A DNA stretch of 64,000 bases from an uncultured Clostridia bacterium. GTDB lineage: Bacteria > Bacillota > DTU025 > MWDF01. Where the stretch lies: contig CAZNZD010000001.1 of assembly GCA_964577435.1 (NCBI GenBank), forward strand, positions 7,247-71,246, written 5' to 3'. Of the stretch, positions 4,313 to 19,701 are shown one piece after another (position 1 is the first letter of the stretch; each line of letters starts with the position of its first letter). A model generated the notes under the pieces. That model had not been told where the DNA came from. It saw only the letters and a program-made list of their open reading frames with translations, and did not search any database. The position numbers were made by a program, and so were the translations under genes.

Positions 4313-5890
4313 ATGAAGAGGACGTTAACGGCATTAGCACTTAGCCTGCTGCTCATAGCTGCGTTCGGCGCCACCGTACTGGGCGCTACACCGGTGAAGG
4401 GCGGAACACTAAAAGTCGCAGTCACCAGCATACAGCAGCTCGGGCTGTACAAATCGGCCAGCAACGATGAGAATGACGCGACCAGCCTTATCTTCGACCA
4501 GCTTTTCATCATCGGCAAGAACGATTTCAAACCGGTGCCGCACCTGGCGGAAAGCTGGAGCAACCCTGACCCTCTGACATGGGTCTTCAAGCTCCGCAAG
4601 GGGACGATGTTCCATGACGACAACGCTGTATTCCCCAAGGGCAAGAGCCGCGAAGTCACCGCGGACGACGTCGTATACTCGGTCAACAGGATGATAAAGA
4701 ACTCCACATCCTTCGTGCTGGGCCCCATCACCAGCGTTAAGGCCCTCGACCGCTATACTGTGGAGATAAAGACCGAGACCCCGCAGCCTTTCCTCGTAAA
4801 CGATTCCAACAGGCTTGCCAGGATGTCCGTAGTTCCCAAGGAGGCTATAGACAAGCTTGGAGAAGACGGTTTCGCAAAGACCCCCATAGGTAGCGGCCCG
4901 TTTAAGTTCAAGAGCTTCTCCCCCGATTCGGGTCTTCTTATCGTAAGAAACGAGCTCTACTGGCTCCCCGTGTACCTTGATGCGGTAGAGTTCGTCACCA
5001 TACCGGACCCCGCGGTACAAACATTGGCCCTGCAGTCTGGGGAAGTGCATGTGGTGAAGCACCTGTTCAACCTGGAAGTCGCCCAGACTTTCGAGAAGAA
5101 CCCGAACTTCAACCTCTATTCCAGGGGTGGATCCTACCGCGGCCTCGGCTTTAATGTGACGGTGCCCCCTTATGACAACTGGGAAGTTCGTGACGCCATC
5201 TCCAAGCTGCTTGACATCGATTCAGCCTTCAAGGCCGTAATCGGTGCGCACGGAGAGCGCGCATACGGCCAGTGCCCCCCGTGGGTCCCCCATGGTTACG
5301 ACCCGACGTTGAAATCCCTCTGGAGCTATGATCCCGCGGCAGGGCTTAAGCTCCTTGAAAAGAACGGCTTCAAGGACACCAACAGCGACGGCTTCCTGGA
5401 GTGGAACGGCAAACCCTTCAAGGTCGAGATAAAGACGCTTGCTGGCTCGCAGGTGAAGGTCCTTACGATTCTTGCTACGCAGTTGAGGGAGAAGGGCATC
5501 AACGCCGGAGTCCTCCAGCAGGATACGGCGGTTTGGGCTGACGACCTCGTGCAGGGTAAAACGACCTTGTTCTTCGATTACAGCTTCGCGGGGACCACAG
5601 GCTTCCACTCGCTCTTCCACAGCTCAATGATCGGCAAGTCCAACACTCACTACTTCAAGAACGCTGAAGTGGACAAGCTCCTGGACGAAGCGCTTACCAA
5701 GACGAACTTCAACGAGCTCTCCACACTGTGGAAGAAGGCGCAGAAGATAGTGTTCGAACAGAGGGCAGGCATCCCGATGTACTTCGAATGGAGCTACATG
5801 ATAGCCAACAAGAAGGTGAACGACATTGTCCCGCCGTGGGGCGGCTTCAACCTCGTGACCATAGAGAACAACGTCTGGCTCAGCAAGTAG
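4313..5890 (+). CDS. ABC transporter substrate-binding protein, family 5 (oligopeptide/dipeptide)
   Basis: Start at MKRTLTALALSLLLIAAFGATVLG (signal peptide) with GAGGG RBS. Family-5 SBP architecture. Stop codon is TAG. Confidence 0.85.
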   Translation: MKRTLTALALSLLLIAAFGATVLGATPVKGGTLKVAVTSIQQLGLYKSASNDENDATSLIFDQLFIIGKNDFKPVPHLAESWSNPDPLTWVFKLRKGTMFHDDNAVFPKGKSREVTADDVVYSVNRMIKNSTSFVLGPITSVKALDRYTVEIKTETPQPFLVNDSNRLARMSVVPKEAIDKLGEDGFAKTPIGSGPFKFKSFSPDSGLLIVRNELYWLPVYLDAVEFVTIPDPAVQTLALQSGEVHVVKHLFNLEVAQTFEKNPNFNLYSRGGSYRGLGFNVTVPPYDNWEVRDAISKLLDIDSAFKAVIGAHGERAYGQCPPWVPHGYDPTLKSLWSYDPAAGLKLLEKNGFKDTNSDGFLEWNGKPFKVEIKTLAGSQVKVLTILATQLREKGINAGVLQQDTAVWADDLVQGKTTLFFDYSFAGTTGFHSLFHSSMIGKSNTHYFKNAEVDKLLDEALTKTNFNELSTLWKKAQKIVFEQRAGIPMYFEWSYMIANKKVNDIVPPWGGFNLVTIENNVWLSK

Positions 5891-5914
5891 GCTCAAGCCA
5901 GGGCAGCTCATTAA

Positions 5915-5942
5915 GGCCGGGCCCTGTGAAAAGGGCCCGGCC
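5915..5942 (+). promoter_or_regulatory. perfect 10-bp stem hairpin (GGCCGGGCCC-N8-GGGCCCGGCC) between SBP and permease
   Basis: Seen directly in the sequence. No U-tract follows. Typical intra-operon attenuator or mRNA stabiliser that raises SBP:permease stoichiometry. Confidence 0.4.
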
Positions 5943-5964
5943 AATCATGAAATAGGGGTTTGAA

Positions 5965-6912
5965 GTGGGCAAATATCTTATTAGGCGCATCTTGATAACC
6001 ATACCCGTGCTTTTCGGCATAACTTTCATAGTTTTCGCCATGGTGTCCTTCGCTCCGGGAAGTGCAATAAGCCTTATGCTCAGCAACGAGAACGTAAACG
6101 TCGCAAACGTCGACACTCTCGCCGAGGAGCTTGGGCTGGAGCTTCCGTGGTACCAGCAGTACGCGAAGTACATGGGCAGGCTCCTTAAAGGCGACATGGG
6201 GCGCTCCATCCAGTACAACAGGCCCGTCGGCGAGATGATATGGGAGAAAGTGGGGAACACTGTCCTGCTGTCAGTAAGCGCGATGCTTGTCGCGGTCCTC
6301 ATATCCATACCTCTCGGGGTTCTGGCTGCGGCGAAGCGGCGGTCGGCCATCGACTACCTTGCGACCGGCTTAGCCCTCGTCGGAGTTTCCATCCCCGGAT
6401 TCTACCTTAGCCTTATTCTCATAATCGTCTTCGGGCTCAAGCTCGGCTGGCTGCCGATAAGGGGCCTGCCCAGCTACGATGTGACCTTCGTGAAGATGGT
6501 GAGGCACCTTACCCTTCCTTCAATCGCCCTAGGGTCGATGCTGTCGGGCGTGCTGACTCGCCTGACAAGGGCATCCGTGCTGGAGGCGATGTCCCAGGAT
6601 TACGTAAGGACGGCAAGGTCGAAGGGGCTTTCGCAGACTTCGGTGCTGTTCAAGCATGCCTTGAGAAATGCGCTGCTACCAGTGCTTACGACGATTGGCA
6701 TGCAGTTCGGCTCCCTTCTCGGAGGCGCGGTGATAATTGAGACAATATTCTCGCTTCCCGGCCTGGGGATGCTTTCGATGAACGCAGTGAAATTCAGGGA
6801 CATACCGCTGATCCAGGGGACGGTGCTTGTGTTCGCAGTGGCATTCGTAATCGTCCAGCTGATAGTGGATATGCTGTATGTGCTGGTTGACCCGAGGATC
6901 AGATATGAGTGA
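5965..6912 (+). CDS. ABC transporter permease (DppB/OppB-like)
   Basis: GTG start. 315 aa polytopic membrane protein carrying an EAA-loop region characteristic of peptide permeases. Confidence 0.85.
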   Translation: MGKYLIRRILITIPVLFGITFIVFAMVSFAPGSAISLMLSNENVNVANVDTLAEELGLELPWYQQYAKYMGRLLKGDMGRSIQYNRPVGEMIWEKVGNTVLLSVSAMLVAVLISIPLGVLAAAKRRSAIDYLATGLALVGVSIPGFYLSLILIIVFGLKLGWLPIRGLPSYDVTFVKMVRHLTLPSIALGSMLSGVLTRLTRASVLEAMSQDYVRTARSKGLSQTSVLFKHALRNALLPVLTTIGMQFGSLLGGAVIIETIFSLPGLGMLSMNAVKFRDIPLIQGTVLVFAVAFVIVQLIVDMLYVLVDPRIRYE

Positions 6913-7786
6913 GAAGATCGGCGGCAAGGTATCGTTGCTACGGAAGAACAGGGTAATCAGGTCCTTCGCGAGGCATAAGCTTGGCTTGCTGGGGGTGTTC
7001 ATGCTGCTGGGGTTCGTGCTCATAGCTGCCCTGGCGCCTGTCATCATCCCCGCGGACCCTTACACGATGAAGCTGGAGGAGCCCTTCCTGCCCCTAGGAA
7101 GCCAAGGGCATCCTCTGGGCACGGACAATTTCGGAAGGGATATGCTCGCAAGGCTGGCTTATGGGGCGAGGATCTCCCTTCTAATAGGCATAGTGGTAGT
7201 CTCGGTGGCGGCAGTGCTGGGGACCGTGCTGGGCCTTCTGGCAGGCTACTACGGCGGCTGGGCAGACTTCGCGGTCATGAGGCTTGTGGAGGTGTTCCAT
7301 TCTTTCCCCTTCCTCATACTTGTTATAGCGGTCATGGCAATACTCGGTCCCAGCATATTCAACGTGATGTGGGTGCTGGGCGTGGTCAGCTGGCCGTCTT
7401 ATGCAAGGATAGTGCGCGCCCAGGTGCTTTCCCTCAAATCACAGGACTTCGTATCGGCCGCAAAGGCGACAGGCTGCGGGGATGCCAGGATAATCTTCCG
7501 GCATATCCTGCCCAACACTCTGACTCCGATAATCGTTCAGGCGACCCTAGGGATTCCAGGTGCCATACTCTCGTCTGCGAGCCTGGGTTTCCTAGGGTTC
7601 GGTGTGCAGCCCCCCACCCCTGAATGGGGCTCCATGGTATCTGAGGGTAAGGACTTCATAATGCTCAACTCTAACCTGATCATATGGCCGGGCCTGTGCA
7701 TCTTCATGGTGGTCCTTAGCTTCAATTTCATCGGGGATGCGCTGAGGGACACCCTTGACCCAAGGCTTGCAAGGGAGCTTAAATAG
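6905..7786 (+). CDS. ABC transporter permease (DppC/OppC-like)
   Basis: Start MSEKIGG overlaps the upstream stop (ATGAGTGA). N-terminal extension plus six TM helices, typical of OppC/DppC. Stop codon is TAG. Confidence 0.85.
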   Translation: MSEKIGGKVSLLRKNRVIRSFARHKLGLLGVFMLLGFVLIAALAPVIIPADPYTMKLEEPFLPLGSQGHPLGTDNFGRDMLARLAYGARISLLIGIVVVSVAAVLGTVLGLLAGYYGGWADFAVMRLVEVFHSFPFLILVIAVMAILGPSIFNVMWVLGVVSWPSYARIVRAQVLSLKSQDFVSAAKATGCGDARIIFRHILPNTLTPIIVQATLGIPGAILSSASLGFLGFGVQPPTPEWGSMVSEGKDFIMLNSNLIIWPGLCIFMVVLSFNFIGDALRDTLDPRLARELK

Positions 7787-7834
7787 GAAGCTTCGGCAGC
7801 GGCAGGAGCCGTGCCGATAGATGGAGGTAATCGG

Positions 7835-9184
7835 ATGACTATCGACGAACGGCTGGCCAAAGTGCCGGATTTCAAGGAATTCTACGGTGTCGACGAGCTC
7901 TACGGGCACGCAAGGCGGGTGGCCGAGCAGAATCCCGGCCTTTGCAGGCTCAGCTATGTTGGAAGCTCCAAGTCCGGCGAACGGATCCCGATGGTGAGCG
8001 TGGGCGACGGGCCGGAATCCATACTGCTTTTCGCCTCCCCGCACCCGAACGAGCCGATAGGCGCGATGATGGCATACTTCGTGCTGGACGAGGTCGTGTC
8101 GGACGCCTCCATGAGGACCGGGCGCACCTGGCATTTCATACCCTGCATAGACCCTGACGGAACCAGGCTCAACGAGGGCTGGTTCAAGGGCCCCTATACC
8201 ATCAAGAACTATGCAAAGCACTTCTATAGGCCCAAGGGTGACGACCAGGCTGAATGGACCTTCCCCATAGAGTACAAGACTTTCAAGTTCGACAAACCCA
8301 GCCCCGAGACGCGGGCGCTTATGAACGCAATCGAGACGACGAGGCCGTCTGTGATGTATTCGCTTCACAACGCAGGCTTCGGCGGGGCCTATTACTATAT
8401 ATCCTACCCGCTTGAGAAGGCATATCAGACATTCCACAAGCTGCCTCAAGAGAGGGGGCTCCCGCTGTCCTTAGGCGAGCCCGAGGTGCCATACTGCGAG
8501 CAGTACGCCCCGGCGATTTATCGAACGAACCTAGTGACGGATGCATATGACTATTACGAGAAATTCGGCAAGGGCGACCCGGCGCAGTACATGTTCGGAG
8601 GCGCCTCCAGCAGGGACTTCGCGGACAGGGTGAGCAAACCGTTCACTATCATCACCGAGGTGCCCTACTTCAAGTCCCCCAAGATAGGTGACCTTTCCAA
8701 GTGCGGCAGGAGCAGGAAGGAGATCATCCTTGCCGGTGTAGAGCGGTCGAGGCAGATGCTGTCCTTCGTCCAGTCAGTAATAGACGAGACCATATCCGAG
8801 GTTAAGGAGGGGGCAATCCTCAGGGATGCCGCCGCCAAGTTCGCGCTGACTCTCGCCAAGCAGCTTGAAGGCGAGACCAAGTGGGCGAACGAAGAACCAG
8901 GCATGGACGAGGAGGCGACCGTCGCTCAGGAAGCGGATGCGCTATACATAGGAGTCTTCTACAAGATGCTCATCGTCTCCATGTACAGAAGAGCGCTCGG
9001 CATGCAGATTGCCAAAGGCGCATCAGAGAAGCTGATGCAAGCTTACGCACAGCTCGATTTGGCAATTGACGGCTGGGCTGAGGAGATAGAGCGCGAGCTG
9101 AATTACGAGGTCGTCGCTATCAGGGACCTTGTGCAGATACAATACGGCGCGCTGCTGGCTGTACTTGAGGCTCTTGGGAAGTAG
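7835..9184 (+). CDS. M14-family zinc metallocarboxypeptidase-like protein, cytoplasmic (no signal peptide)
   Basis: Zn-ligand motif HPNEP (HxxE) and a second His in SLHNAGFGG. Start MTIDERL has GGAGGT 6 nt upstream. Translationally coupled to the permeases. Confidence 0.7.
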   Translation: MTIDERLAKVPDFKEFYGVDELYGHARRVAEQNPGLCRLSYVGSSKSGERIPMVSVGDGPESILLFASPHPNEPIGAMMAYFVLDEVVSDASMRTGRTWHFIPCIDPDGTRLNEGWFKGPYTIKNYAKHFYRPKGDDQAEWTFPIEYKTFKFDKPSPETRALMNAIETTRPSVMYSLHNAGFGGAYYYISYPLEKAYQTFHKLPQERGLPLSLGEPEVPYCEQYAPAIYRTNLVTDAYDYYEKFGKGDPAQYMFGGASSRDFADRVSKPFTIITEVPYFKSPKIGDLSKCGRSRKEIILAGVERSRQMLSFVQSVIDETISEVKEGAILRDAAAKFALTLAKQLEGETKWANEEPGMDEEATVAQEADALYIGVFYKMLIVSMYRRALGMQIAKGASEKLMQAYAQLDLAIDGWAEEIERELNYEVVAIRDLVQIQYGALLAVLEALGK

Positions 9185-10988: not shown

Positions 10989-11181
10989 GGCTCAAGATAG
11001 GAGTGCAGCCTAACCGCTGCTATTCATTAAACGTCAGCAGACGATGGGCAATTCCAGTGTTTTCCTTATTGAGTGCAAATCTCTAATCCATCGATCATAC
11101 ATAAAAAGGATAAGCGGTAGTTCGTGTGCCCGAGAAAGCCTATAATAGTTACATTTGGCAATGCTAACGGAGGATATCAGT

Positions 11182-11379
11182 ATGAGCCACAAGGATTTCG
11201 TCAAGAGCTTCTTCACCCTGTCCGCACTGTCTTTGGTTGCCTCAGCCGCCGTCAGTTACCTCTACAATCTGCTTATCCATGGAGCTGGTTTCGTGGACTG
11301 GCAGACGTCCTTCCGCTTCTCCATCCTATTCGGGTTAGTTCTGACGTGGATAAGAAACAGTAGGGGGAAGAAGGCCTGA
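11182..11379 (+). CDS. small two-TM membrane protein (hypothetical)
   Basis: GGAGGA sits 7 nt upstream of the ATG. 65 aa with two hydrophobic helices. Confidence 0.3.
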   Translation: MSHKDFVKSFFTLSALSLVASAAVSYLYNLLIHGAGFVDWQTSFRFSILFGLVLTWIRNSRGKKA

Positions 11380-11451: not shown

Positions 11452-12927
11452 CTAGTTGCCCATATCAGGCTTGTCAGCCTCGCCTATGATGCTTCTTGCG
11501 ACATACCAAGAGGTGATCATGGCAGTAGGCACCCCGCCCGGGTTGTGGACATAATGCCCTACGGGATAGAAGCGCTTAATGGGCAGGTCCTCATCGAACT
11601 TGAAGCGTGGAGCCTTCGACGGATCCCAATTCCAGCCCGCAGTGGCACCTTTGCTGTTTCCTGTATACCTCTCGTAGGTAAGCGGTGAGGCGGCCTCCCG
11701 GACCAAGATGCCCGCCCGCAATCCCGGCAGGAACTCCTCGGCGCGAGCGATCAGCTCCTCTGCGGCTTCCCTTTTACGAACCAGGTAAGCCGCCCTGTCG
11801 TCCTTCAACCCCTCCCAGTCCTCATAGGGACTCAGTATGCCGACGAAAAGCGCATGCTTGCCTTCCGGTGCCACCGACGGGTCATCCTTGCTGAGAAGGA
11901 CCAACTGTATGTATTTGCCGTCGGCGCAGGTGAAGAAGACGTGGCTTCCTTGAAACCTCTTCAGGCCCGCAGATAGCCCCGGGTTCCCATCCAAGCCCAG
12001 GAACAGGGAGAATATTGATTCCGACGGCTTGGCTCTCTCAAGCTTCTCTGCCATTGTTCCGGGCAGATTGCCGCGCCCGATCAGATTAAAACATGTCTTC
12101 CTCAGGTCGGCAGCCGAAACCACCCAGTCGGAAGGGATGAAGCCTCCCTCCGAAAGCTCCACACCTTTCGCCCTTCCACCTTCTGTCACGATTCTCCGAA
12201 TCTCCTCCCCAAGGTGGATCTCACCGCCATGCTCTCTCACATAGCGGGCCATCAGGTCTGCAAGCTCCTGCAATCCTCCTTCGGGGACCCAGGCGTCGCC
12301 GTAGTAGGAGGCCCACATACCCAGCGTGTTCTTCCCGGTCATGACCGGATATCCCAGCTGGTTTAGCATCTGCCGTAGAAGCCTATCCTTGAAGAGGCTG
12401 TCGTGAAGGCTGCGGTTTGTGTTGCGTCCTGCGACAAGCGCCGCCCAGGGGAAAAGAGGATGCCTTACGATAAGCTTGAGCATGCTTATAGGCACGCCTT
12501 GCCCGAACATCATGCCGCTTTCCAGCATGTCCCGGAAGGCGCTGCTGCCGATTCCCACCCAGCGGAAGTACCGCCTGAGCGCCTGCTTCTCACCCGGAAA
12601 GTGCCCTGCAAGAAGCCTTTCGGTCTTACTCGGCCCATCTAGTAGGATGTCGTTTGGTCCCCAGCTCATCTGATGCTTAACCGGAATGAACCTCAAACAT
12701 TCCTTAAGGCCCAGCTCCTTGAGTATCGGAAAGATGATGCCGTTCGACCCGAAGGAGGTCGGACCGGCCGGGAAGGTGAAGCCTTCCCTCCTGAATGACG
12801 ACATATATCCTCCGGGCACTTTATGCTTCTCATACACTGCTACGGAGAAGCCTTGCCGGGCAAGATACGCAGCGATGGTAAGCCCCGCCATCCCCCCGCC
12901 GATTACCGCAACTGTCCTATCCTTCAT
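11452..12927 (-). CDS. FAD/NAD(P)-dependent oxidoreductase, phytoene-desaturase (CrtI/CrtN)-like family
   Basis: N-terminal dinucleotide-binding motif VAVIGGGMAGL. 491 aa with family-typical architecture. Confidence 0.8.
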   Translation of the reverse strand: MKDRTVAVIGGGMAGLTIAAYLARQGFSVAVYEKHKVPGGYMSSFRREGFTFPAGPTSFGSNGIIFPILKELGLKECLRFIPVKHQMSWGPNDILLDGPSKTERLLAGHFPGEKQALRRYFRWVGIGSSAFRDMLESGMMFGQGVPISMLKLIVRHPLFPWAALVAGRNTNRSLHDSLFKDRLLRQMLNQLGYPVMTGKNTLGMWASYYGDAWVPEGGLQELADLMARYVREHGGEIHLGEEIRRIVTEGGRAKGVELSEGGFIPSDWVVSAADLRKTCFNLIGRGNLPGTMAEKLERAKPSESIFSLFLGLDGNPGLSAGLKRFQGSHVFFTCADGKYIQLVLLSKDDPSVAPEGKHALFVGILSPYEDWEGLKDDRAAYLVRKREAAEELIARAEEFLPGLRAGILVREAASPLTYERYTGNSKGATAGWNWDPSKAPRFKFDEDLPIKRFYPVGHYVHNPGGVPTAMITSWYVARSIIGEADKPDMGN

Positions 12928-13816
12928 GGGCTTGAACCTCCTGGTTAACTACCTGCCTTCTAGCAAGGAGGATGGCTCCCAATATTACCAAGGCGATACC
13001 CGCTAGTGCTAATGCTGTAGATATGGCAGATTCCGGGCGAAGCAAGAATACGAGAAAGTATGCGGCAATTGGCAACACCTGCGAGGGGAAGTACTGGATC
13101 GGAACCAGCCTTGACACGTTCCCGCAGCTGAGCGCATGCTGTGTCTCCGAAATGCCCAGGATGCTACCGGCAAGCACAATGCCTGTCGCTGTCGCGGCAT
13201 AAAGAAGGTCGGCTGCCGAAAACCTTCCCGAGCTCCACCTGGCCGGCAGGGCCATAAGTATCCCCAGCCAGAGATTCGATTGGGAGAACAGCAATCCTGC
13301 GTTCAGGATCCTGAGAATGCCCCTCATGCGCCTATTTGCCTTCTGCAATGCATGGCAAGCCGATGAAAGCGCGGCTACAGATGCGGTGAAGAGGCCCAGG
13401 CGCAGAATGAAGGCAGTATCGTACAAGTCGATCGACCGGACATCTATCGACATGCGGCTTAGGCCGAAGGACGTGACAGCTGCCATTACAAGGGCTATGC
13501 CGGCTACTTCTCCCGCATTCAGCTTCTCTCCTGCGAGCCTGGCCGCACCTATAGCGAGAGGTATCAGGCCGATGGCCATAAGCCCGGGGAGCATGGCCGG
13601 ACCGATCATTGCCTGAGCCAGCACATTAAGCGGCACCCCGACGAGAAACTGAAGTGCGAACCCGGCAAGCCACAATGGATTGCGGATAACACGGCGCATA
13701 AGGCTCCCATCATGCGGCATCTTCATGATCGCCAGCTTCTGGACCAGTACGCCTATGTTGAAAGCCGTCCCCGCCGCCAAGGCGGCCGCCACTCCCGCCC
13801 AATAGGAACCGAGCAT
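12917..13816 (-). CDS. polytopic membrane transporter, DMT superfamily (EamA/NIPA-like)
   Basis: Start MLGSYWAG has GGGAGGG 5 nt upstream. About 10 TM helices with internal two-fold repeat character. Overlaps the downstream oxidoreductase start, implying one operon. Confidence 0.55.
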   Translation of the reverse strand: MLGSYWAGVAAALAAGTAFNIGVLVQKLAIMKMPHDGSLMRRVIRNPLWLAGFALQFLVGVPLNVLAQAMIGPAMLPGLMAIGLIPLAIGAARLAGEKLNAGEVAGIALVMAAVTSFGLSRMSIDVRSIDLYDTAFILRLGLFTASVAALSSACHALQKANRRMRGILRILNAGLLFSQSNLWLGILMALPARWSSGRFSAADLLYAATATGIVLAGSILGISETQHALSCGNVSRLVPIQYFPSQVLPIAAYFLVFLLRPESAISTALALAGIALVILGAILLARRQVVNQEVQAHEG

Positions 13817-13868
13817 CGTAACCCTCCCGCCGGGAAGGCCCAATAAGCGGGCCTTCCCCGATAAGCAC

Positions 13869-14564
13869 CTATACCTGAGCCGTCTCCAGCTTGCTTTCAT
13901 CTATCCCCCGCTTTAGAAGCCAGCCGAGGAAGGCGAACTCCGCGAACATGCCGGGGATTAGAAGGAACGCCTCCACGGACCCGCCGAAGCCCAGGAAGTG
14001 AGCCGCTACGGAAAGCAGCCCGCAGGCCGCCTCCACAATGAACAGCACGCCGTATCCTTTGGGGATGAACTTCGAGCGCCAGATCAGAAGCCCGAGCGGC
14101 AGCACCCAGAGCGCGAAGAAAGACTGCCCTATCATATATCCATGATTGTAGGCGTCGAAGCTGGACATGGCCAGCGCCTGCAGCTGAGCTTCGGAGAACG
14201 CCCCCATGTATGAGCCGGAGGTCAGTATCGTAAGCGGGGCGAGCTCGTTTAGCACATTCGACAGCAGAAGCACGGAGCCTGCCGCGGCGAAAAGGACCAT
14301 CATCTGAGCCAGGTTCTTGTTCACTGAGACCAGAAGCCTGTACAGCGCAATCGCAGTGAACAGGTAGCAGAGGGACATGAGTATGTCGCTAAGGATTCCG
14401 AAGCGGTACAGAAGCCCGTTTGCCAGGATGTTGCCCGCGGTAACCGCGGCGTCGCCCGGTATGAAGATGCCCTGACGGAAGAATAACTCCGCGAAAAGTC
14501 CGAATGCGGCCATGAGCAGGAAAAATATTCCGGCAAGCCTTGCAATTCCCTTAGTAGGATTCAT
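13869..14564 (-). CDS. DUF4386-like integral membrane protein
   Basis: 231 aa multi-TM protein. It is a paralog of the 15142-15876 product, with similar length, hydropathy and shared motifs. Confidence 0.55.
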   Translation of the reverse strand: MNPTKGIARLAGIFFLLMAAFGLFAELFFRQGIFIPGDAAVTAGNILANGLLYRFGILSDILMSLCYLFTAIALYRLLVSVNKNLAQMMVLFAAAGSVLLLSNVLNELAPLTILTSGSYMGAFSEAQLQALAMSSFDAYNHGYMIGQSFFALWVLPLGLLIWRSKFIPKGYGVLFIVEAACGLLSVAAHFLGFGGSVEAFLLIPGMFAEFAFLGWLLKRGIDESKLETAQV

Positions 14565-14992
14565 CTCATTGCCCTTCTTTCATAGGTTGTTACAACGGTT
14601 TCGGGCTTCGGGCCCTTCCAGGTCCAGGCAGCCCAGATCATATAAACCATGGCAGCGACCTCTGCCGTGGCGAAGAACAGGTAGTGAAGGTCCAGCGACC
14701 CGCCAGCGACGACGAATGCTATGGTTATCACGGATGCGGCTATGTTCGCAAGCCTGTTTGCCCTGTGGCCAAGCACCCTTGACAGTATTATCATTGCTAT
14801 CGGGATTTCGATTACGACCGCGAATGCCAGCATCATCTCCTGGCTCACATGCACCTGCGCCTTCTGCGCGCCGGCTTGAAGCATGAAGGAGAAGATGTCA
14901 GCAGCCAGTATGTTGACCATCACGAATACCCATAGGGTCGAAAGGCGCGCTTTCATCTCTTGAAGTCCGGTCTGGGGCTTGAAGGTTCTCAT
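14561..14992 (-). CDS. small integral membrane protein (hypothetical, 4 TM)
   Basis: 143 aa. Overlaps the downstream gene by ATGA. Confidence 0.5.
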   Translation of the reverse strand: MRTFKPQTGLQEMKARLSTLWVFVMVNILAADIFSFMLQAGAQKAQVHVSQEMMLAFAVVIEIPIAMIILSRVLGHRANRLANIAASVITIAFVVAGGSLDLHYLFFATAEVAAMVYMIWAAWTWKGPKPETVVTTYERRAMR

Positions 14993-15141
14993 TCTCGTAT
15001 CTCCTTTTCGTTGCCCGGGGCAGCCCCCCCGATGAGGCCGGACTGCTCCGGATTATCTTAGAAATCGCCTTTTGGGTCGCACTTCATCAAGGCATGGTGA
15101 TTCCCATGTCATCTGCGCCTGGTTTTCCGTTGTCAGGGGGG

Positions 15142-15876
15142 TTAGATTACGGAGGCCTGTACTGTGATGCCCGCCTGCTTGTTGAACCCCTTTGCGATGA
15201 GCCATACGGCAAGGACCATCTCCTGCAGCAGCATCGGCATCGTCATAAGGCATTCAGCGTCGGATCCGCTTCCGATTGCACCGAACAGGACCAGCATCCC
15301 CGACAGGAAGTAGGAGACGGCCGAGACAAGGCCCCAAACCGAGATCCACCTGGGTACGAGCCTTGCGCGATACAGCACCGAGTAGAGCATGACAGCCCCG
15401 ATGATGAAGAAGAGCATCGTTATGGCGCTTCCCGCCCTGGGGTCCGTAAGCGCCTTGCTCACAGCGCTCAGCACCGCGGCATCTGCGCCGACTTGGCCGG
15501 CGGCCCTGCCCAGCGCCACGGAGATGAGCCAGCAGAACGCCGTTATCATGTAAGTTGCAGTCTCAAGAGCGCCTCTGAATACCACGTAACCGGTCGCCAC
15601 AGCCGGGTTGTGCTTCCTGAGCACGGGATAGAGACAGACAGACATCATCGCAAGCGCTATTCCCATCGTCAGTATGAGAAGCGCACCGATTATCACGGGA
15701 GCCGGGTTGCCTACCACGTTGCCAAGATAGTTCGGATCGTCCAGGATGAGCTTTGCGACAACCGAGCAGCAGCCTGCCACAGTGCCGATGATGTAAAGCG
15801 TTCCTACCTTAGCTGCTGTACGGCGCAGCTGTTTCGCCTCTGTCATCTCCGCCTTGGTCGCCATTAACTCATTCAT
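15142..15876 (-). CDS. DUF4386-like integral membrane protein (paralog of 13869-14564)
   Basis: 244 aa multi-TM protein. The antisense 257-aa ORF on the plus strand is Arg/His-rich junk. Confidence 0.55.
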
Positions 15877-16102
15877 TTACGTTCCCTTCTTTCTGATAGC
15901 TGAATACTTCCCCTATGGCCACGCCGAACGCATCGGCGATCTTGAAAGCCAACTCCAGCGAAGGTGAGTACTTGCCCGCCTCAATGGAGATTATGGTCTG
16001 CCTGGATACCCCAGTCCTCTCAGCAAGCTCCTGCTGCGTCATCTCGTTGGCGAAGAAGCGCAGCCTTCTGATGTTGTTCTTGACCTCGAAACCCTTGCTC
16101 AT
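15869..16102 (-). CDS. XRE-family helix-turn-helix transcriptional regulator
   Basis: HTH_3 signature [37 protein letters not shown]. Start MSKGFEV with GAGAGGAG RBS. Confidence 0.75.
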
Positions 16103-16152
16103 ACCAAGCACTCCTCTCATGATGGCTTCTGGCTATCGGTGGACAGGTCAGC

Positions 16153-16650
16153 TCAGATGCCCTTCATGTAGTAGTAGATATGGGCGACGCCCTCGATCAT
16201 CGCGCCTATAGCAAAGGAGCCGAAAAGGATGTTGAGCATCACCGCGGGCGCCCAGTTAAGCACGAGTGAGCCAAGTGCCGCGACGAAGCCTATGCCCACT
16301 ACGGTGAACCCTATCCTGGTGGACTTAAGCTCGATCATCTTGTCCATCTCGTCTTCGACCATCTCCAGCTCGATCGACTTCTCGACCTTCTTGTCGTCGC
16401 ATGTGCCGGTCTTGATCTGCTCGTTGACCGCCGCCGCTATCGAAAGAAGGATGTGGAAGATGATCTGAATAACTATCATGGCCGCCACTCCAATTCCGAT
16501 GAACAGCAGTATCGTCACCGCCCAGAACCTCATGTCGTCCATCGCAGCTGCTCCCGAGTTCACCTTCCCGAAAGCATAGATGCAATAGAAGGCAAGAAGG
16601 GCTATGCCGGTGAGCAATGACAGTATCGTTCTCTTGATCTTGTATGACAT
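16153..16650 (-). CDS. membrane protein (DUF2975-like, commonly paired with small XRE regulators)
   Basis: 165 aa, 4 TM helices, immediately upstream of the XRE gene in the same operon. Confidence 0.5.
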   Translation of the reverse strand: MSYKIKRTILSLLTGIALLAFYCIYAFGKVNSGAAAMDDMRFWAVTILLFIGIGVAAMIVIQIIFHILLSIAAAVNEQIKTGTCDDKKVEKSIELEMVEDEMDKMIELKSTRIGFTVVGIGFVAALGSLVLNWAPAVMLNILFGSFAIGAMIEGVAHIYYYMKGI

Positions 16651-16911
16651 TTCAGTACGCCTCCTGTATTAGTAAATTCTACAGTTCTATTTGTAATACT
16701 TACTTATCTTTATGTCAAGTATATTTTACATAGAAACCGAAATTCTGCACTTCTGTGGAATCAACCTGCATTTTGCATGAATTGCTTACATTGGAAAGCA
16801 GCGCATCCAAAACAATCCTCAAGATGATCGACATGTGACATGAAAGAGAATTGCCGGCGGTTCCCCCGCCGGCAGCGCTGTTGGATATTCCGAAGCGCGA
16901 TGCTGTCGCTC

Positions 16912-17601
16912 TTACAGGATGTTTTCTAGCCCCTTCCGATCCAGGATGCGTATCCTCCTCTGCCCCTCAAGCTCTATTAGGCCCTGCTCCTGAAAGCTTG
17001 AAAGCTTCCTCGAAAGGGTCTCCTGGCTCATGCCGATCTGCGAGGCGAGGTCAGACTTCCTCATGCCGAGCACGATTTCGTCGCCTTCGCCCGCAAGCTT
17101 CAGGAGCGCCTGGGCCAGCCTCTGCTCCACCGACAGAAGGTTGATGTCCTCGATTAGCTCCTCCACACTTCCCAGGCGTCTGCTCAGCTCCTCTATTATC
17201 TTCAGCGCGATGGAAGGGCTTTCGAGCATCAGCTTCTTGAGCTTACTGCCATCTATCATGCACATCGTGGTAGCCTCGAGGGCTTCCGCATTGTCGGACA
17301 TGGGAACTGGGTTAAGAAGGGACAGCTCTCCCATGAACGAACCGGGGCCCAGCACCCTGATGACCTGTTCTTTGCCCGATGTGCCGAGCCTGGTTACCTT
17401 CACCCCGCCCTTATGGATCACATAGAGCTTCCCGCCCTCGTCTCCCTCAAGATAGACCATCTCGCCCTTCTGATAGGTCCTGTCAGTGGTGATGGCCGCG
17501 ATCTTCAACATCTCCTCTTCGGTCACGCTGCTGAAGATCGGAACCGACTCTATGCAGTTGGAGCTCTTATGCAAGGAGCAATTTCCGCTCATTCCGGTCA
17601 C
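16912..17601 (-). CDS. Crp/Fnr-family transcriptional regulator
   Basis: cNMP-binding beta-roll (GEMVYLEGDEGGKLYVIHKGGVKV) followed by a C-terminal HTH (RKSDLASQIGMSQETLSRKL). Confidence 0.8.
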   Translation of the reverse strand: MTGMSGNCSLHKSSNCIESVPIFSSVTEEEMLKIAAITTDRTYQKGEMVYLEGDEGGKLYVIHKGGVKVTRLGTSGKEQVIRVLGPGSFMGELSLLNPVPMSDNAEALEATTMCMIDGSKLKKLMLESPSIALKIIEELSRRLGSVEELIEDINLLSVEQRLAQALLKLAGEGDEIVLGMRKSDLASQIGMSQETLSRKLSSFQEQGLIELEGQRRIRILDRKGLENIL

Positions 17602-17603
17602 CT

Positions 17604-19463
17604 CTAATCCTCAAGGGGCTTTCTCCGTCCGTAGCCCAGAAGCCTCACTGCATTGATTATAACAAGCAGGACCGACATCTCGTGAACCAGCATGCCGAAA
17701 GAGAGGTTCACGGTCTTGATAAGCACCCCCGCCAGAAGCAGACCCGCCACCAGCAGGGCGAAGTATATGTTCTGCTTCATGTTGCCGACGGTGGCCCTGG
17801 CGAGCCCTATTGCATATGACAGCTTGCCCAGCTCTGAGGAGATAAGCACGACATCTGCGGTCTCGATGGCGACATCGGTGCCGCCGCCACCCATTGCGAT
17901 GCCAAGGTCTGCTGCAGCAAGAGCGGGCGCATCGTTTATGCCGTCTCCAACCATTGCGACCTTGACGCCCCCTTCTCTCAGCTCCTCGAGCACCCGGACC
18001 TTGTCCTCCGGCATGAGCTCCGCATAGAAGCCGTCAAGGCCAAGCTCGTCGGCGATAGCACTTGCAGACCTTTCGTTGTCGCCAGTGAGCATAACCATCT
18101 TCCTTATGCCCTGAGACCTTAACTTCCCGATAAGTGCCCTTGCCCCGGGCCTAACCGTATCCGATATGGAGAGAACGCCTAGCACGCCGCCTTTATTACC
18201 TACTATTACTGCCGTGCGCCCCTTGCCCTCCTCGGTTGCTATGTAATCCTCCTGACCGCTAAGCGCTACGCCTTCCTCATCGAAGAGCCTTCTGTTGCCT
18301 ATGAGATACCCCTTGCCCTCAAGTTTGAACTTCAAGCCCTGGCCCTTAACGAACTCCGGGTCCTCCGGCTTGTTCGTCACCGTCCCGATGCGAGCCCTCG
18401 CCCCATCAGTTATCGCCCTGGCGAGCGGGTGCTCCGAATAGGCCTCCCCCACCGCCGCTATATGAAGAAGCTCTTCCTCTGTGACCCCATATGCCCTTAT
18501 GCCCACAAGCTTGGGCTTTCCCGCAGTAAGGGTGCCTGTCTTATCGAATGCCACGGTCCGGACCGCGCCTAGCTTCTCCACGGTCTCGCCGCCTTTGACC
18601 AGCACGCCGTTTTTAGCGCCGTTTCCGATGCCGGCAACGATGGATACCGGCGCTGAGATGACGAGCGCCCCCGGGCAGGCGATGACCAGAAGTGTGAGGG
18701 AAAGCCTCAGGTCCCTGGTGATGAGATACATCATCAGCGAGAGGACGATCACAGCGGGGGTATAGTACCTCGAGAACCTTTCCAGGAACTTCTGCGTTTT
18801 CGCCTTCTTGTCCTGGGCCTCCTCGACCATATGCAGGATCCTTGCAAACGTCGTGTCATCGCCGACCCTGTCCGCCCTAATAATCAGATACCCGGATTCT
18901 ACGATGGTCCCGGAGAAGGCCTTATCGCCCGGAGCCCGCTCCACCGGGATGGGCTCCCCTGTTATCGCTGCCTGGTCTATGAATGCCGAACCTTCAGCGA
19001 TGGTGCCGTCGACGGATATCTTCTCGCCGGGCTTCACCACTACCAGGTCGCCCTTCACGACTTCCTCAGGGGCCAATATGAGCTCCGTGTCGCCCCTTCT
19101 CACCCTGGCGGAATCCGGGGCTGTCGCAAGCAGCGCCTTTATGGAAGAGCGGGTCTTCTCTATGGTCAGTGCCTCAAGATAGTCGCCGAAGGTGAATAGG
19201 AAGGTGACTGCGGCTGCCTCCCAGTACTCGCCGATGACAAGGGCCCCCGCGACCGCGATGGTGACAAGGGCGTCTATCCCCACGATGCGGTATCTGATGG
19301 CGCCGAACGCCTTCATGAAGATCGGGGCCCCCGCGACGAAAGTCGACACAAGCATCAACAACACAGTTGCCGGCGCGTACCCTAGGAGCCTCTTCAGGAT
19401 GTAGGAGGCGGCAACAAGCGCCGCTGCCAGCAGTATCCTTCTTCCTTTTGCATTCCTGAGCAT
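17604..19463 (-). CDS. heavy-metal-translocating P1B-type ATPase (no fused N-terminal HMA domain)
   Basis: DKTGTLT phosphorylation motif and the GDGINDAPAL hinge. The TM6 ion motif reads CPG rather than CPC/CPH/SPC. Confidence 0.9.
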   Translation of the reverse strand: MLRNAKGRRILLAAALVAASYILKRLLGYAPATVLLMLVSTFVAGAPIFMKAFGAIRYRIVGIDALVTIAVAGALVIGEYWEAAAVTFLFTFGDYLEALTIEKTRSSIKALLATAPDSARVRRGDTELILAPEEVVKGDLVVVKPGEKISVDGTIAEGSAFIDQAAITGEPIPVERAPGDKAFSGTIVESGYLIIRADRVGDDTTFARILHMVEEAQDKKAKTQKFLERFSRYYTPAVIVLSLMMYLITRDLRLSLTLLVIACPGALVISAPVSIVAGIGNGAKNGVLVKGGETVEKLGAVRTVAFDKTGTLTAGKPKLVGIRAYGVTEEELLHIAAVGEAYSEHPLARAITDGARARIGTVTNKPEDPEFVKGQGLKFKLEGKGYLIGNRRLFDEEGVALSGQEDYIATEEGKGRTAVIVGNKGGVLGVLSISDTVRPGARALIGKLRSQGIRKMVMLTGDNERSASAIADELGLDGFYAELMPEDKVRVLEELREGGVKVAMVGDGINDAPALAAADLGIAMGGGGTDVAIETADVVLISSELGKLSYAIGLARATVGNMKQNIYFALLVAGLLLAGVLIKTVNLSFGMLVHEMSVLLVIINAVRLLGYGRRKPLED

Positions 19464-19485
19464 CCTGAATCCCCCTTCCTTCTAG

Positions 19486-19701
19486 CTACTTCTCTCCTAG
19501 CACGCTGTAGCCGAGCCTGGTTATGCTGTTCTTGATGGCCTCGCTGCTGATTACGCCCTCGTCGAAAGAAACCTTAACCCTAGAGGTGTTGAATGCCACT
19601 TCCGCTTCCGCTACGCCTTGGGTCCTTCTGAGCATGCCCTCTATCTTGGCTATGCAGCTGGGGCAGCTTACAGTCTCCAATTGGTAAGTCTTGCTTATCA
19701 T
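19486..19701 (-). CDS. heavy-metal-associated (HMA) domain metallochaperone (CopZ-like)
   Basis: 71 aa ferredoxin-like fold with a metal-binding CxxC (VSCPSCIAKIEG). Confidence 0.8.
   Translation of the reverse strand: MISKTYQLETVSCPSCIAKIEGMLRRTQGVAEAEVAFNTSRVKVSFDEGVISSEAIKNSITRLGYSVLGEK

Follow-up and report, generated by a model that had tools for sequence, protein, structure and literature searches.

The question raised by the locus described here is what a run of membrane proteins, headed by a small regulator and ending in a flavoenzyme of the carotenoid desaturase type, does in its host. The locus lies in a stretch of 64,000 nucleotides, hereafter the window, from an uncultured Clostridia bacterium (GCA_964577435.1, contig CAZNZD010000001.1, positions 7,247 to 71,246), and window coordinates are used throughout. 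Seven open reading frames (ORFs) on the minus strand, designated g1 to g7 in the order of transcription, span 11452-16650. These are the genes that a first-pass annotation had placed there, and since each has strong homologues elsewhere they are taken as real. Hydropathy predicts four transmembrane (TM) helices in g1 and g4, ~6 in g3 and g5, ~10 in g6 and none in g2 and g7, making five of the seven products integral membrane proteins, and a Pfam search assigned five products (g2, g3, g4, g5 and g7) and left g1 and g6 unassigned. The genes form three modules, a head cassette (g1-g2), a membrane cassette (g3-g5) and a pair formed by g6 and the flavoenzyme gene g7, which also occur separately and which are together far more often than would be expected by chance for such minor families. 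What is new is that a CrtI-superfamily enzyme of a distinct clade is here combined with a NIPA-like membrane protein and with members of two DUF membrane families. At slightly less than even odds (a probability of about 0.45), we propose that the three reusable modules constitute one inducible operon, which at the membrane would transform an unsaturated, lipophilic compound of exogenous or stress-related origin.

Conserved linkage of the three modules

The synteny set comprised 18 independent loci containing a g7 homologue with its upstream context, which were searched with the seven window proteins. Three pairs of loci (L008 and L037, L017 and L038, L007 and L027) are redundant. One close relative, L001, was found by a contig scan with a single-protein query, and in this locus g3 to g7 are collinear with the window. 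Locus L016, from a distant relative, harbors a tight eight-gene operon (g1-g2-DUF6326-ZnADH-DUF3795-DUF4386-g6-g7) with gaps of at most 116 nt and overlaps of 4 bp at both the DUF4386-g6 and the g6-g7 junction, and its proteins share 38-64% identity with those of the window (g7: 55%). A rearranged version of the full combination is present in L006. The linkage on which the first-pass annotation had staked its operon, naming genes scattered individually in relatives as the result that would speak against it, is thus conserved.

In the g6-g7 pair, g6 adjoins g7 in eight of the 18 loci (L001, L002, L004, L005, L006, L008/L037, L016 and L018). The two genes usually overlap or lie close together, with overlaps of 11, 8 or 4 bp in L001, L002 and L016. 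The pair occurs without the other cassettes in L002, L004, L008/L037 and L018, and in L037 it stands alone beside ribosomal protein genes. In L004, from Spirochaeta thermophila, the g6 and g7 homologues are split by an insertion sequence (IS) element with an rve-type transposase (6779-7934). Genes for DUF6326 and/or DUF4386 proteins are found in five of the 18 loci (L001, L005, L006, L016 and L036), and the g1-g2 pair is found in L006, L016 and L036. In the last of these it lies directly upstream of g7, without g6.

Where g6 is missing, the neighbour tends to be a flavodoxin-type protein. A Flavodoxin_5 gene overlaps the start of the g7 homologue in L003, an FMN_red gene adjoins it in L007 and L009, and the g6-free loci L015 and L010 include a Flavodoxin_5 and an F420H2_quin_red-like gene, respectively. 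Locus L003 (Fusobacteria) also carries a heliorhodopsin gene (5382-6161) ~2 kb upstream of the g7 homologue, beside two flavodoxin genes, which may be a coincidence. Zn-dehydrogenases of a single subfamily of the medium-chain dehydrogenase/reductase (MDR) type, with 34-55% mutual identity, are encoded in six of the 18 loci, including L002, where the gene overlaps g6 by 4 bp; none is located near the window operon. The regulators encoded in the related loci are of the TetR, PadR and MalT-LuxR types.

No phytoene, dehydrosqualene, squalene or polyprenyl-diphosphate synthase and no lycopene cyclase is encoded in the window operon or the 18 independent loci, the scope of this comparison being the loci themselves. 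The sole isoprenoid-type neighbour is a cis-prenyltransferase (PF01255), which is encoded divergently beside the g7 homologue in L017 (9151-10038, minus strand) and its redundant counterpart L038 (8152-8841, minus strand), with TetR and UbiE-like methyltransferase genes nearby. An isoprenoid-backbone synthase is absent from the other 17 of the 18 loci. Class-I methyltransferases with UbiE-like matches are encoded near g7 in L004, L011 and L038.

Two further protein families recur in these loci. The first is a soluble family of ~65 amino acids with the consensus YEIVI.G....WFE.L....T.L.G..VDQAAL.G.L..I.DLG..L.SVN, which is encoded in L002 (4985-5185), L005 (5464-5781), L006 (1007-1201 and 6625-6843), L029 (9718-9918), L039 (6725-6922) and L041 (6750-6953) and lacks a Pfam match in the two members scanned (L005 and L006). 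In L002, L005, L039/L040 and L041, its gene separates the cargo genes from a MalT-like LuxR regulator. Cargo (DUF4386, DUF6326, Zn-alcohol dehydrogenase or CrtI-like) lies downstream of it in all the loci listed, and the gene is absent from the window. The second is a 4-TM family with the motif WHFF.P.AW.WYSYI, found in L005 (8405-9100, overlapping the g6 start) and L006 (8784-9200). ORFs of 187 and 196 amino acids that overlap g7 upstream in L012 and L013 appear to be spurious or of low complexity.

The flavoenzyme encoded by g7

The last gene, g7 (11452-12927, minus strand), encodes a 491 amino acid oxidoreductase of the CrtI/CrtD/CrtISO superfamily, predicted to depend on flavin adenine dinucleotide (FAD). 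As the protein has no TM helix, it is expected to be of the membrane-peripheral type. Residues 13-481 match the Amino_oxidase family (PF01593; Bitscore: 95; cut-off: 19.8; e-value: 7e-27), and the sequence furthermore contains a NAD_binding_8 match (e-value: 4.5e-16), an N-terminal GxGxxG FAD-binding fold and the dinucleotide-binding motif GGGMAG. The g7 family profile can be aligned over its full length with the structures 4REP (e-value: 2e-33) and 4DGK (e-value: 4e-31), its only full-length solved relatives, and its best NCBIfam matches are crtI_fam, CrtD and carotenoid isomerase. The placement in the phytoene desaturase family proposed in the first-pass annotation therefore stands as far as full-length alignment to CrtI-type enzymes goes, but not at the level of the curated family, as the score of g7 against TIGR02734 (crtI_fam) is 136 bits and the cut-off is 238.1. 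Its scores are also far below the cut-offs of all equivalog models (CrtD, CrtISO, CrtO, HpnE and PPO). Amine oxidases, L-amino-acid oxidases and PPO align with g7 in the N-terminal FAD-binding part only, and the grouping with amine or retinol oxidases that had been named as the outcome unfavourable to the assignment is not what is observed. A HemY/PPO-like role, prompted by the HemG-type flavodoxin neighbour, was rejected on the same grounds, with PPO matching the first ~115 residues only.

Sequence comparison places g7 in a distinct, highly conserved clade of the CrtI superfamily. Mean column identity is 69% over 18 sequences, and orthologues with ~60% identity are present in Bacillota, Chloroflexota, Fusobacteria, Ignavibacteria, Bacteroidota and Spirochaeta thermophila, covering at least six phyla. 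In a rough neighbour-joining tree of the clade, the enzymes linked to g6 and those without g6 fall into different parts. The only plasmid-borne match to g7, from Paraburkholderia, is 27% identical, and nothing on this clade turned up in a literature search that covered COG1233 and prolycopene isomerase in anaerobes.

The NIPA-like membrane protein encoded by g6

The stop of g6 (12917-13816, minus strand) overlaps the start of g7 by 11 bp. Its likely start at 13816, preceded by the ribosome-binding site (RBS) GGGAGGG, gives a product of 299 amino acids, in keeping with the 295-299 amino acids of its homologues. The predicted structure (pLDDT: 88; pTM: 0.85) shows ~10 TM helices. The first-pass annotation had labelled g6 as a NIPA-like transporter of the drug/metabolite transporter (DMT) type, and this holds at the family level, with NIPA (PF05653) matches in eight of 37 close homologues (best e-value: 1.2e-7) and an EamA (PF00892) match in one of the 37. 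Window g6 itself has no Pfam match at an e-value of 0.1 or below. A Foldseek search of the g6 model against the PDB returned ABC-exporter noise only, with TM-scores of ~0.2. On sequence grounds, it is reasonable to regard g6 as NIPA/DMT-like at the family level and as a marginal, distant member of the DMT clan. Translational coupling of a DMT member with a CrtI-like enzyme is not known, and no paper on such a pair was found.

The membrane cassette

Upstream of g6 lie three genes for membrane proteins, all on the minus strand. Both g3 (15142-15876) and g5 (13869-14564) encode DUF4386 (PF14329) proteins matching the model over their full length (Bitscores: 129 and 156; cut-off: 27.6; e-values: 2.5e-37 and 1.5e-45, respectively), as the first-pass annotation had predicted. 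The g3 protein belongs to a divergent subfamily, and the g5 protein is predicted to fold into a bundle of six long helices (pLDDT: 92). The two had been described as duplicated paralogs. Both are indeed DUF4386 proteins, but a recent duplication is not supported, as they share 21% identity only. Copies of g3 are 77% identical in L001 and 37% identical in L042, and g3- and g5-type genes stand in tandem in the latter locus. The two genes are ancient paralogues. The intervening gene, g4 (14561-14992), had been described simply as a 4TM protein; the four helices are retained by hydropathy, and the family can now be named as DUF6326 (PF19851; Bitscore: 73.6; cut-off: 24; e-value: 2.5e-20). That DUF6326 might be a fragment of DUF4386 was rejected (hhalign probability: 0.2%).

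This cassette also has a life of its own, with DUF4386 genes, with or without DUF6326, occurring in the absence of g6-g7 in L039-L042. Such loci were chosen via g5-type DUF4386 genes regardless of g7. Among them are L041, in which a DUF6326 protein 57% identical to g4 partners DUF4386, and L042, which harbors three DUF4386 copies and a DUF6326 gene behind a GntR-ABC unit. In L039 and L041, DUF4386 follows a MalT-like LuxR regulator and the ~65 amino acid protein described above.

The head cassette and its control region

The operon is preceded by an AT-rich leader (16651-16911; GC: 0.39), which the first-pass annotation had likewise recognized. This region contains a 20-bp imperfect palindrome, ATGTAAAATATACTTGACAT (16712-16731, minus strand; read from 16731 to 16712), which is palindromic at 16 of its 20 positions and occurs once in the window, where no match is expected by chance. 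The palindrome encloses the -35 box TTGACA (16718-16713), which is followed by a spacer of 17 nt and a likely -10 box TACAAA (16695-16690), and it represents a candidate operator of g2. An alignment of the leaders that precede g1 and its homologues in four loci (window, L006, L016 and L036) shows a single conserved block, ATGTAAAATATACTTGACA, with surroundings that are not conserved and a conserved TAC 17 nt downstream of the -35 box, at the expected start of the -10 box. At the same position, L036 contains a nearly perfect palindrome, ATGTATATTATAATATACA. A second operator copy inside the operon was sought in the window search and none was found. In YoaS-YozG operons, the AT-rich leader contains sequence-diverse inverted repeats at which the neighbouring Cro/C1 repressor has been proposed to act (bioRxiv 10.64898/2026.09.15.751765). 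The window leader matches this description, and we infer with good foundation that g2 acts as an autorepressor.

The g2 gene (15869-16102, minus strand) encodes a Cro/C1 (XRE) helix-turn-helix (HTH) protein, as had been predicted, with an HTH_3 match (PF01381; Bitscore: 61.2; cut-off: 23; e-value: 9.4e-17). The longest possible ORF begins at 16120, and a start at 16102, with the RBS GAGGAG, is most likely, yielding a product of 77 amino acids; homologues are of 75-76 amino acids, and those in L006, L016 and L036 share 64-73% identity with g2.

The first gene of the cassette, g1 (16153-16650, minus strand), encodes a protein of 165 amino acids with four TM helices and an acidic central loop. 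Its family, which is not modelled by Pfam, comprises 549 clusters at 50% identity. The DUF2975-like label given to g1 in the first-pass annotation is not borne out. None of 38 family members matches PF11188 (DUF2975), nor does window g1, and homology was rejected when the family was aligned with the true DUF2975 protein of L036 (hhalign probability: 0.6%). The label is an analogy of architecture, not of homology. Weak matches to PF09946 (DUF2178) were obtained for three of the 38 members (best e-value: 5e-4), with none for window g1, and P0287, a member of the g1 family, has a weak precomputed DUF2178 match. A sensor function for g1 is speculation on our part.

A small HTH_3 gene is always next after the g1 homologue in L006, L016, L036 and L043. 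The last of these, picked independently by its g1 homologue, shows the pair at the head of a short-chain dehydrogenase/reductase (SDR) gene with a divergent nitroreductase gene beside it. The g1-g2 pair is a portable head cassette. A genuine DUF2975 and HTH_26 pair followed by a DUF4153 gene is also present in L036 (15065-15745, minus strand), 5 kb from the g1-g2-g7 unit. Since this locus holds both, two kinds of cassette that combine a membrane protein with an HTH protein coexist.

Junctions, boundaries and flanking genes

The junctions of the operon bear in part on the translational coupling inferred by the first-pass annotation from overlaps of 4 or 11 bp. The sequence shows an overlap of 4 bp between g4 and g5 (ATGA), the 11 bp between g6 and g7, and also 8 bp between the g2 stop and the g3 start. 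No overlap exists between g5 and g6, where the g6 start at 13816 leaves a gap of 52 nt. This gap contains an 11-bp G+C-rich hairpin (13832-13859, minus strand; GGGGAAGGCCC-loop-GGGCCTTCCC; -25.9 kcal/mol; z-score: -2.2) without a T-tract, which may stabilise the RNA or mark a site of processing. L001 has a similar G+C-rich hairpin between g5 and g6, and in L016 there is no hairpin and the genes overlap. A spacer of 149 nt (14993-15141, minus strand) separates g3 from g4 and is 79% identical to that of L001. It includes a dyad, CATGG-N6-CCATG (15108-15093), which is kept in L001 with N5, and neither a T-tract terminator nor a significant fold (z-score: -0.13). A riboswitch or small RNA in the leader or spacers was considered and rejected, as an Rfam scan of these regions returned no family, only one sub-threshold chance match, and the 149-nt spacer lacks significant structure. 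No intrinsic terminator is predicted between the operon blocks beyond chance expectation, and none is evident after g7.

A terminator-like hairpin (16852-16874, minus strand) that belongs to the Crp-family gene upstream marks the boundary of the operon on that side and, read from 16874 to 16852, has a 9-bp stem with eight GC pairs and a T-rich tail. The upstream neighbours (16912-19701, minus strand) constitute a heavy-metal module encoding an HMA-domain protein, a P-type ATPase and a Crp/Fnr-family regulator, the last with cNMP_binding and HTH_Crp_2 domains (16912-17601). A BspA-type leucine-rich repeat protein is encoded downstream. These flanking genes are unrelated to the operon. A candidate gene, an ORF for 74 amino acids on the plus strand (11155-11379) with two hydrophobic segments and no Pfam match, converges on the end of g7. 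The operon was also considered as an anti-phage defence system and rejected as such, PADLOC giving generic HTH matches for g2 and N-terminal or partial g7 matches to two entries only.

Proposed function and alternative explanations

Under the proposed explanation, g2, bound to the 20-bp palindrome that covers the -35 box, would repress the operon, and this repression would be lifted by g1, acting on the membrane side as sensor or modulator. The DUF4386, DUF6326 and DUF4386 proteins would form a membrane cassette, and g6, translationally coupled to the peripheral g7, would form with it the enzymatic core. C=C or allylic C-H bonds would be the target of the latter enzyme, in a hydrophobic molecule that partitions into the membrane. 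A hydrophobic unsaturated chain is suggested as the substrate by the superfamily of g7 and its membrane partners. The g6 protein might deliver, remove or present this substrate, or dock g7 at the membrane. By analogy with CrtISO and RetSat, a reductive (saturase) or reduced-flavin isomerase chemistry appears more plausible than O2-dependent desaturation, because flavodoxin/FMN reductases and MDR reductases recur in the related loci and the hosts look anaerobic. An exogenous or stress-related compound is favoured over a housekeeping lipid pathway by the patchy spread and high cross-phylum identity of g7, by the xenobiotic-type regulators (XRE, TetR, PadR and MalT) and by the near-absence of isoprenoid-backbone synthases from the loci.

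Several points weigh against this explanation. The DUF4386/DUF6326 genes and g6-g7 are also found apart, and as such the functional connection of the cassettes is statistical, seen in five of 18 loci. The 149-nt spacer and the hairpin split the operon into three blocks, making internal promoters possible. The reductive direction is drawn from neighbours in other genomes and from a lifestyle assumed to be anaerobic, and in at least one lineage the cis-prenyltransferase of L017/L038 suggests that the substrate is an isoprenoid made by the cell. The literature searched includes no paper mentioning DUF4386 or DUF6326, and the roles proposed for all components are read from sequence.

The same observations can be arranged differently. 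The operon may modify or export the membrane lipid or isoprenoid of the cell itself, such as a polyprenol, a quinone side chain or a C30/C40 polyene, with g7 as desaturase or saturase and the membrane proteins as lipid handlers, which is close to the membrane-lipid or isoprenoid modification or export module envisaged in the first-pass annotation. The carotenoid desaturases that are the only full-length solved relatives of g7, its carotenoid-type NCBIfam matches, the cis-prenyltransferase of L017/L038, the UbiE-like class-I methyltransferases of L004, L011 and L038 and the preponderance of integral membrane proteins (five of seven) all accord with such a role. However, the isoprenoid synthases and lycopene cyclase are missing from the operon and related loci, g7 reaches 136 bits where crtI_fam demands 238, its patchy distribution with ~60% identity across phyla suggests an accessory, horizontally moved gene, and the company it keeps consists of XRE, TetR, PadR and MalT regulators and generic reductases. 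With a single cis-prenyltransferase lineage set against partners that are reductases and xenobiotic-type regulators, the earlier proposal is not supported, and we consider the own-lipid role unlikely. We hold it equally unlikely that three independent cassettes are merely neighbours within a variable accessory region, with a strand and perhaps read-through transcription in common. Each module can stand elsewhere, g6-g7 alone in L002, L004, L008/L037 and L018, DUF4386 with or without DUF6326 in L039-L042 and g1-g2 ahead of the SDR gene in L043; the spacer and hairpin part the cassettes, and gene order differs among the window, L006 and L016. Against this, the same families meet in five independent g7 loci (L001, L005, L006, L016 and L036), and families as minor as DUF4386 and DUF6326 should seldom come together within 10 kb by chance. 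Moreover, the eight genes of L016 are packed with gaps of at most 116 nt and two 4-bp overlaps, and intrinsic terminators between the blocks of the window operon do not exceed chance.

Quinones are used as acceptors by CrtI and PDS, and g7 might accordingly exchange electrons with a membrane quinone or a quinone-like xenobiotic, the membrane proteins and the recurrent quinone-type reductases serving quinone detoxification or recycling. Related loci supply neighbours from quinone-acting families (Flavodoxin_5 of the HemG type, FMN_red, F420H2_quin_red, MDR ADH_zinc_N_2 of the quinone oxidoreductase type and CMD/AhpD), and a nitroreductase lies beside the g1-g2 cassette of L043. These Pfam families are broad, however, with roles assigned by family only, and the window operon carries none of them; the substrate domain of g7 resembles those of enzymes acting on polyene chains. 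We consider a quinone or electrophile redox module rather improbable. Similarly a long shot is a membrane system of anaerobes, not recognized before, in which g6-g7, aided by DUF4386/DUF6326, would saturate or isomerise the double bonds of long-chain lipophilic molecules (polyenes, polyunsaturated fatty acids or polyprenyl chains) with low-potential electrons.

Significance

Were the inducible-operon explanation correct, the g7 clade would represent a group of CrtI-like flavoenzymes widespread among anaerobes, spanning at least six phyla at ~60% identity, with a role other than carotenoid synthesis. The operon would provide a genomic handle on DUF4386, DUF6326 and the NIPA-like g6 family, and a second, non-homologous cassette of a small membrane protein and a Cro/C1 repressor would be recognized, with its operator defined. 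If the saturase/isomerase system in particular proved correct, it would be a bacterial counterpart of RetSat/CrtISO chemistry and would give two DUF families their first functions. As it stands, this is a well-supported conserved modular operon, functionally open, which is one of many such and contradicts no current understanding.

Comparison with known systems

The g1-g2 cassette shares the architecture of the YoaS-YozG pair, with a small membrane protein, a Cro/C1 HTH protein of ~70-80 amino acids and an AT-rich leader with an inverted repeat. In both, a small 4-TM protein is followed by an HTH_3 protein of ~75 amino acids, and a promoter palindrome is conserved. They differ in that the YoaS-YozG membrane protein belongs to DUF2975, to which g1 is not homologous, and in that the window pair heads a long cargo operon, whereas the YoaS-YozG pair stands alone. 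With the NIPA/EamA transporters of the DMT type (LicB, PDB 7B0K; SLC35B1, PDB 9GRY), g6 has in common the ~10 TM helices and the PF05653 or PF00892 matches of some family members, although window g6 passes no Pfam model and Foldseek gives no PDB match.

The closest comparison for g7 is with CrtI, CrtD and CrtISO (Pantoea CrtI, 4DGK; gamma-carotene desaturase, 4REP), with which it shares the full-length alignment, the GxGxxG FAD fold and a length of ~490 amino acids. In contrast to these, it falls below the TIGR02734 cut-off and forms its own clade with ~60% identity across phyla, and in the loci studied g7 and its homologues are never found beside a phytoene or squalene synthase. The contexts of the clade instead appear anaerobic and unconnected with pigments, and its partner is a NIPA-like membrane protein or a flavodoxin. 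Anaerobic phytoene dehydrogenase-like flavoenzymes have been described in limonene dehydrogenase CtmAB and the sterol delta-24 desaturase (PMC11061730, PMC4109377). These are alpha-beta heterodimers of two paralogous subunits with the flavin covalently bound on a conserved His (PMC11061730), and by this published subunit make-up they are set apart from g7, which is a single gene with no second paralogue in the window or beside its homologues. Like g7, however, they are of the COG1233 type, and they transform hydrophobic isoprenoid-derived substrates without O2, which shows that the roles of the superfamily in anaerobic metabolism extend beyond carotenoids.

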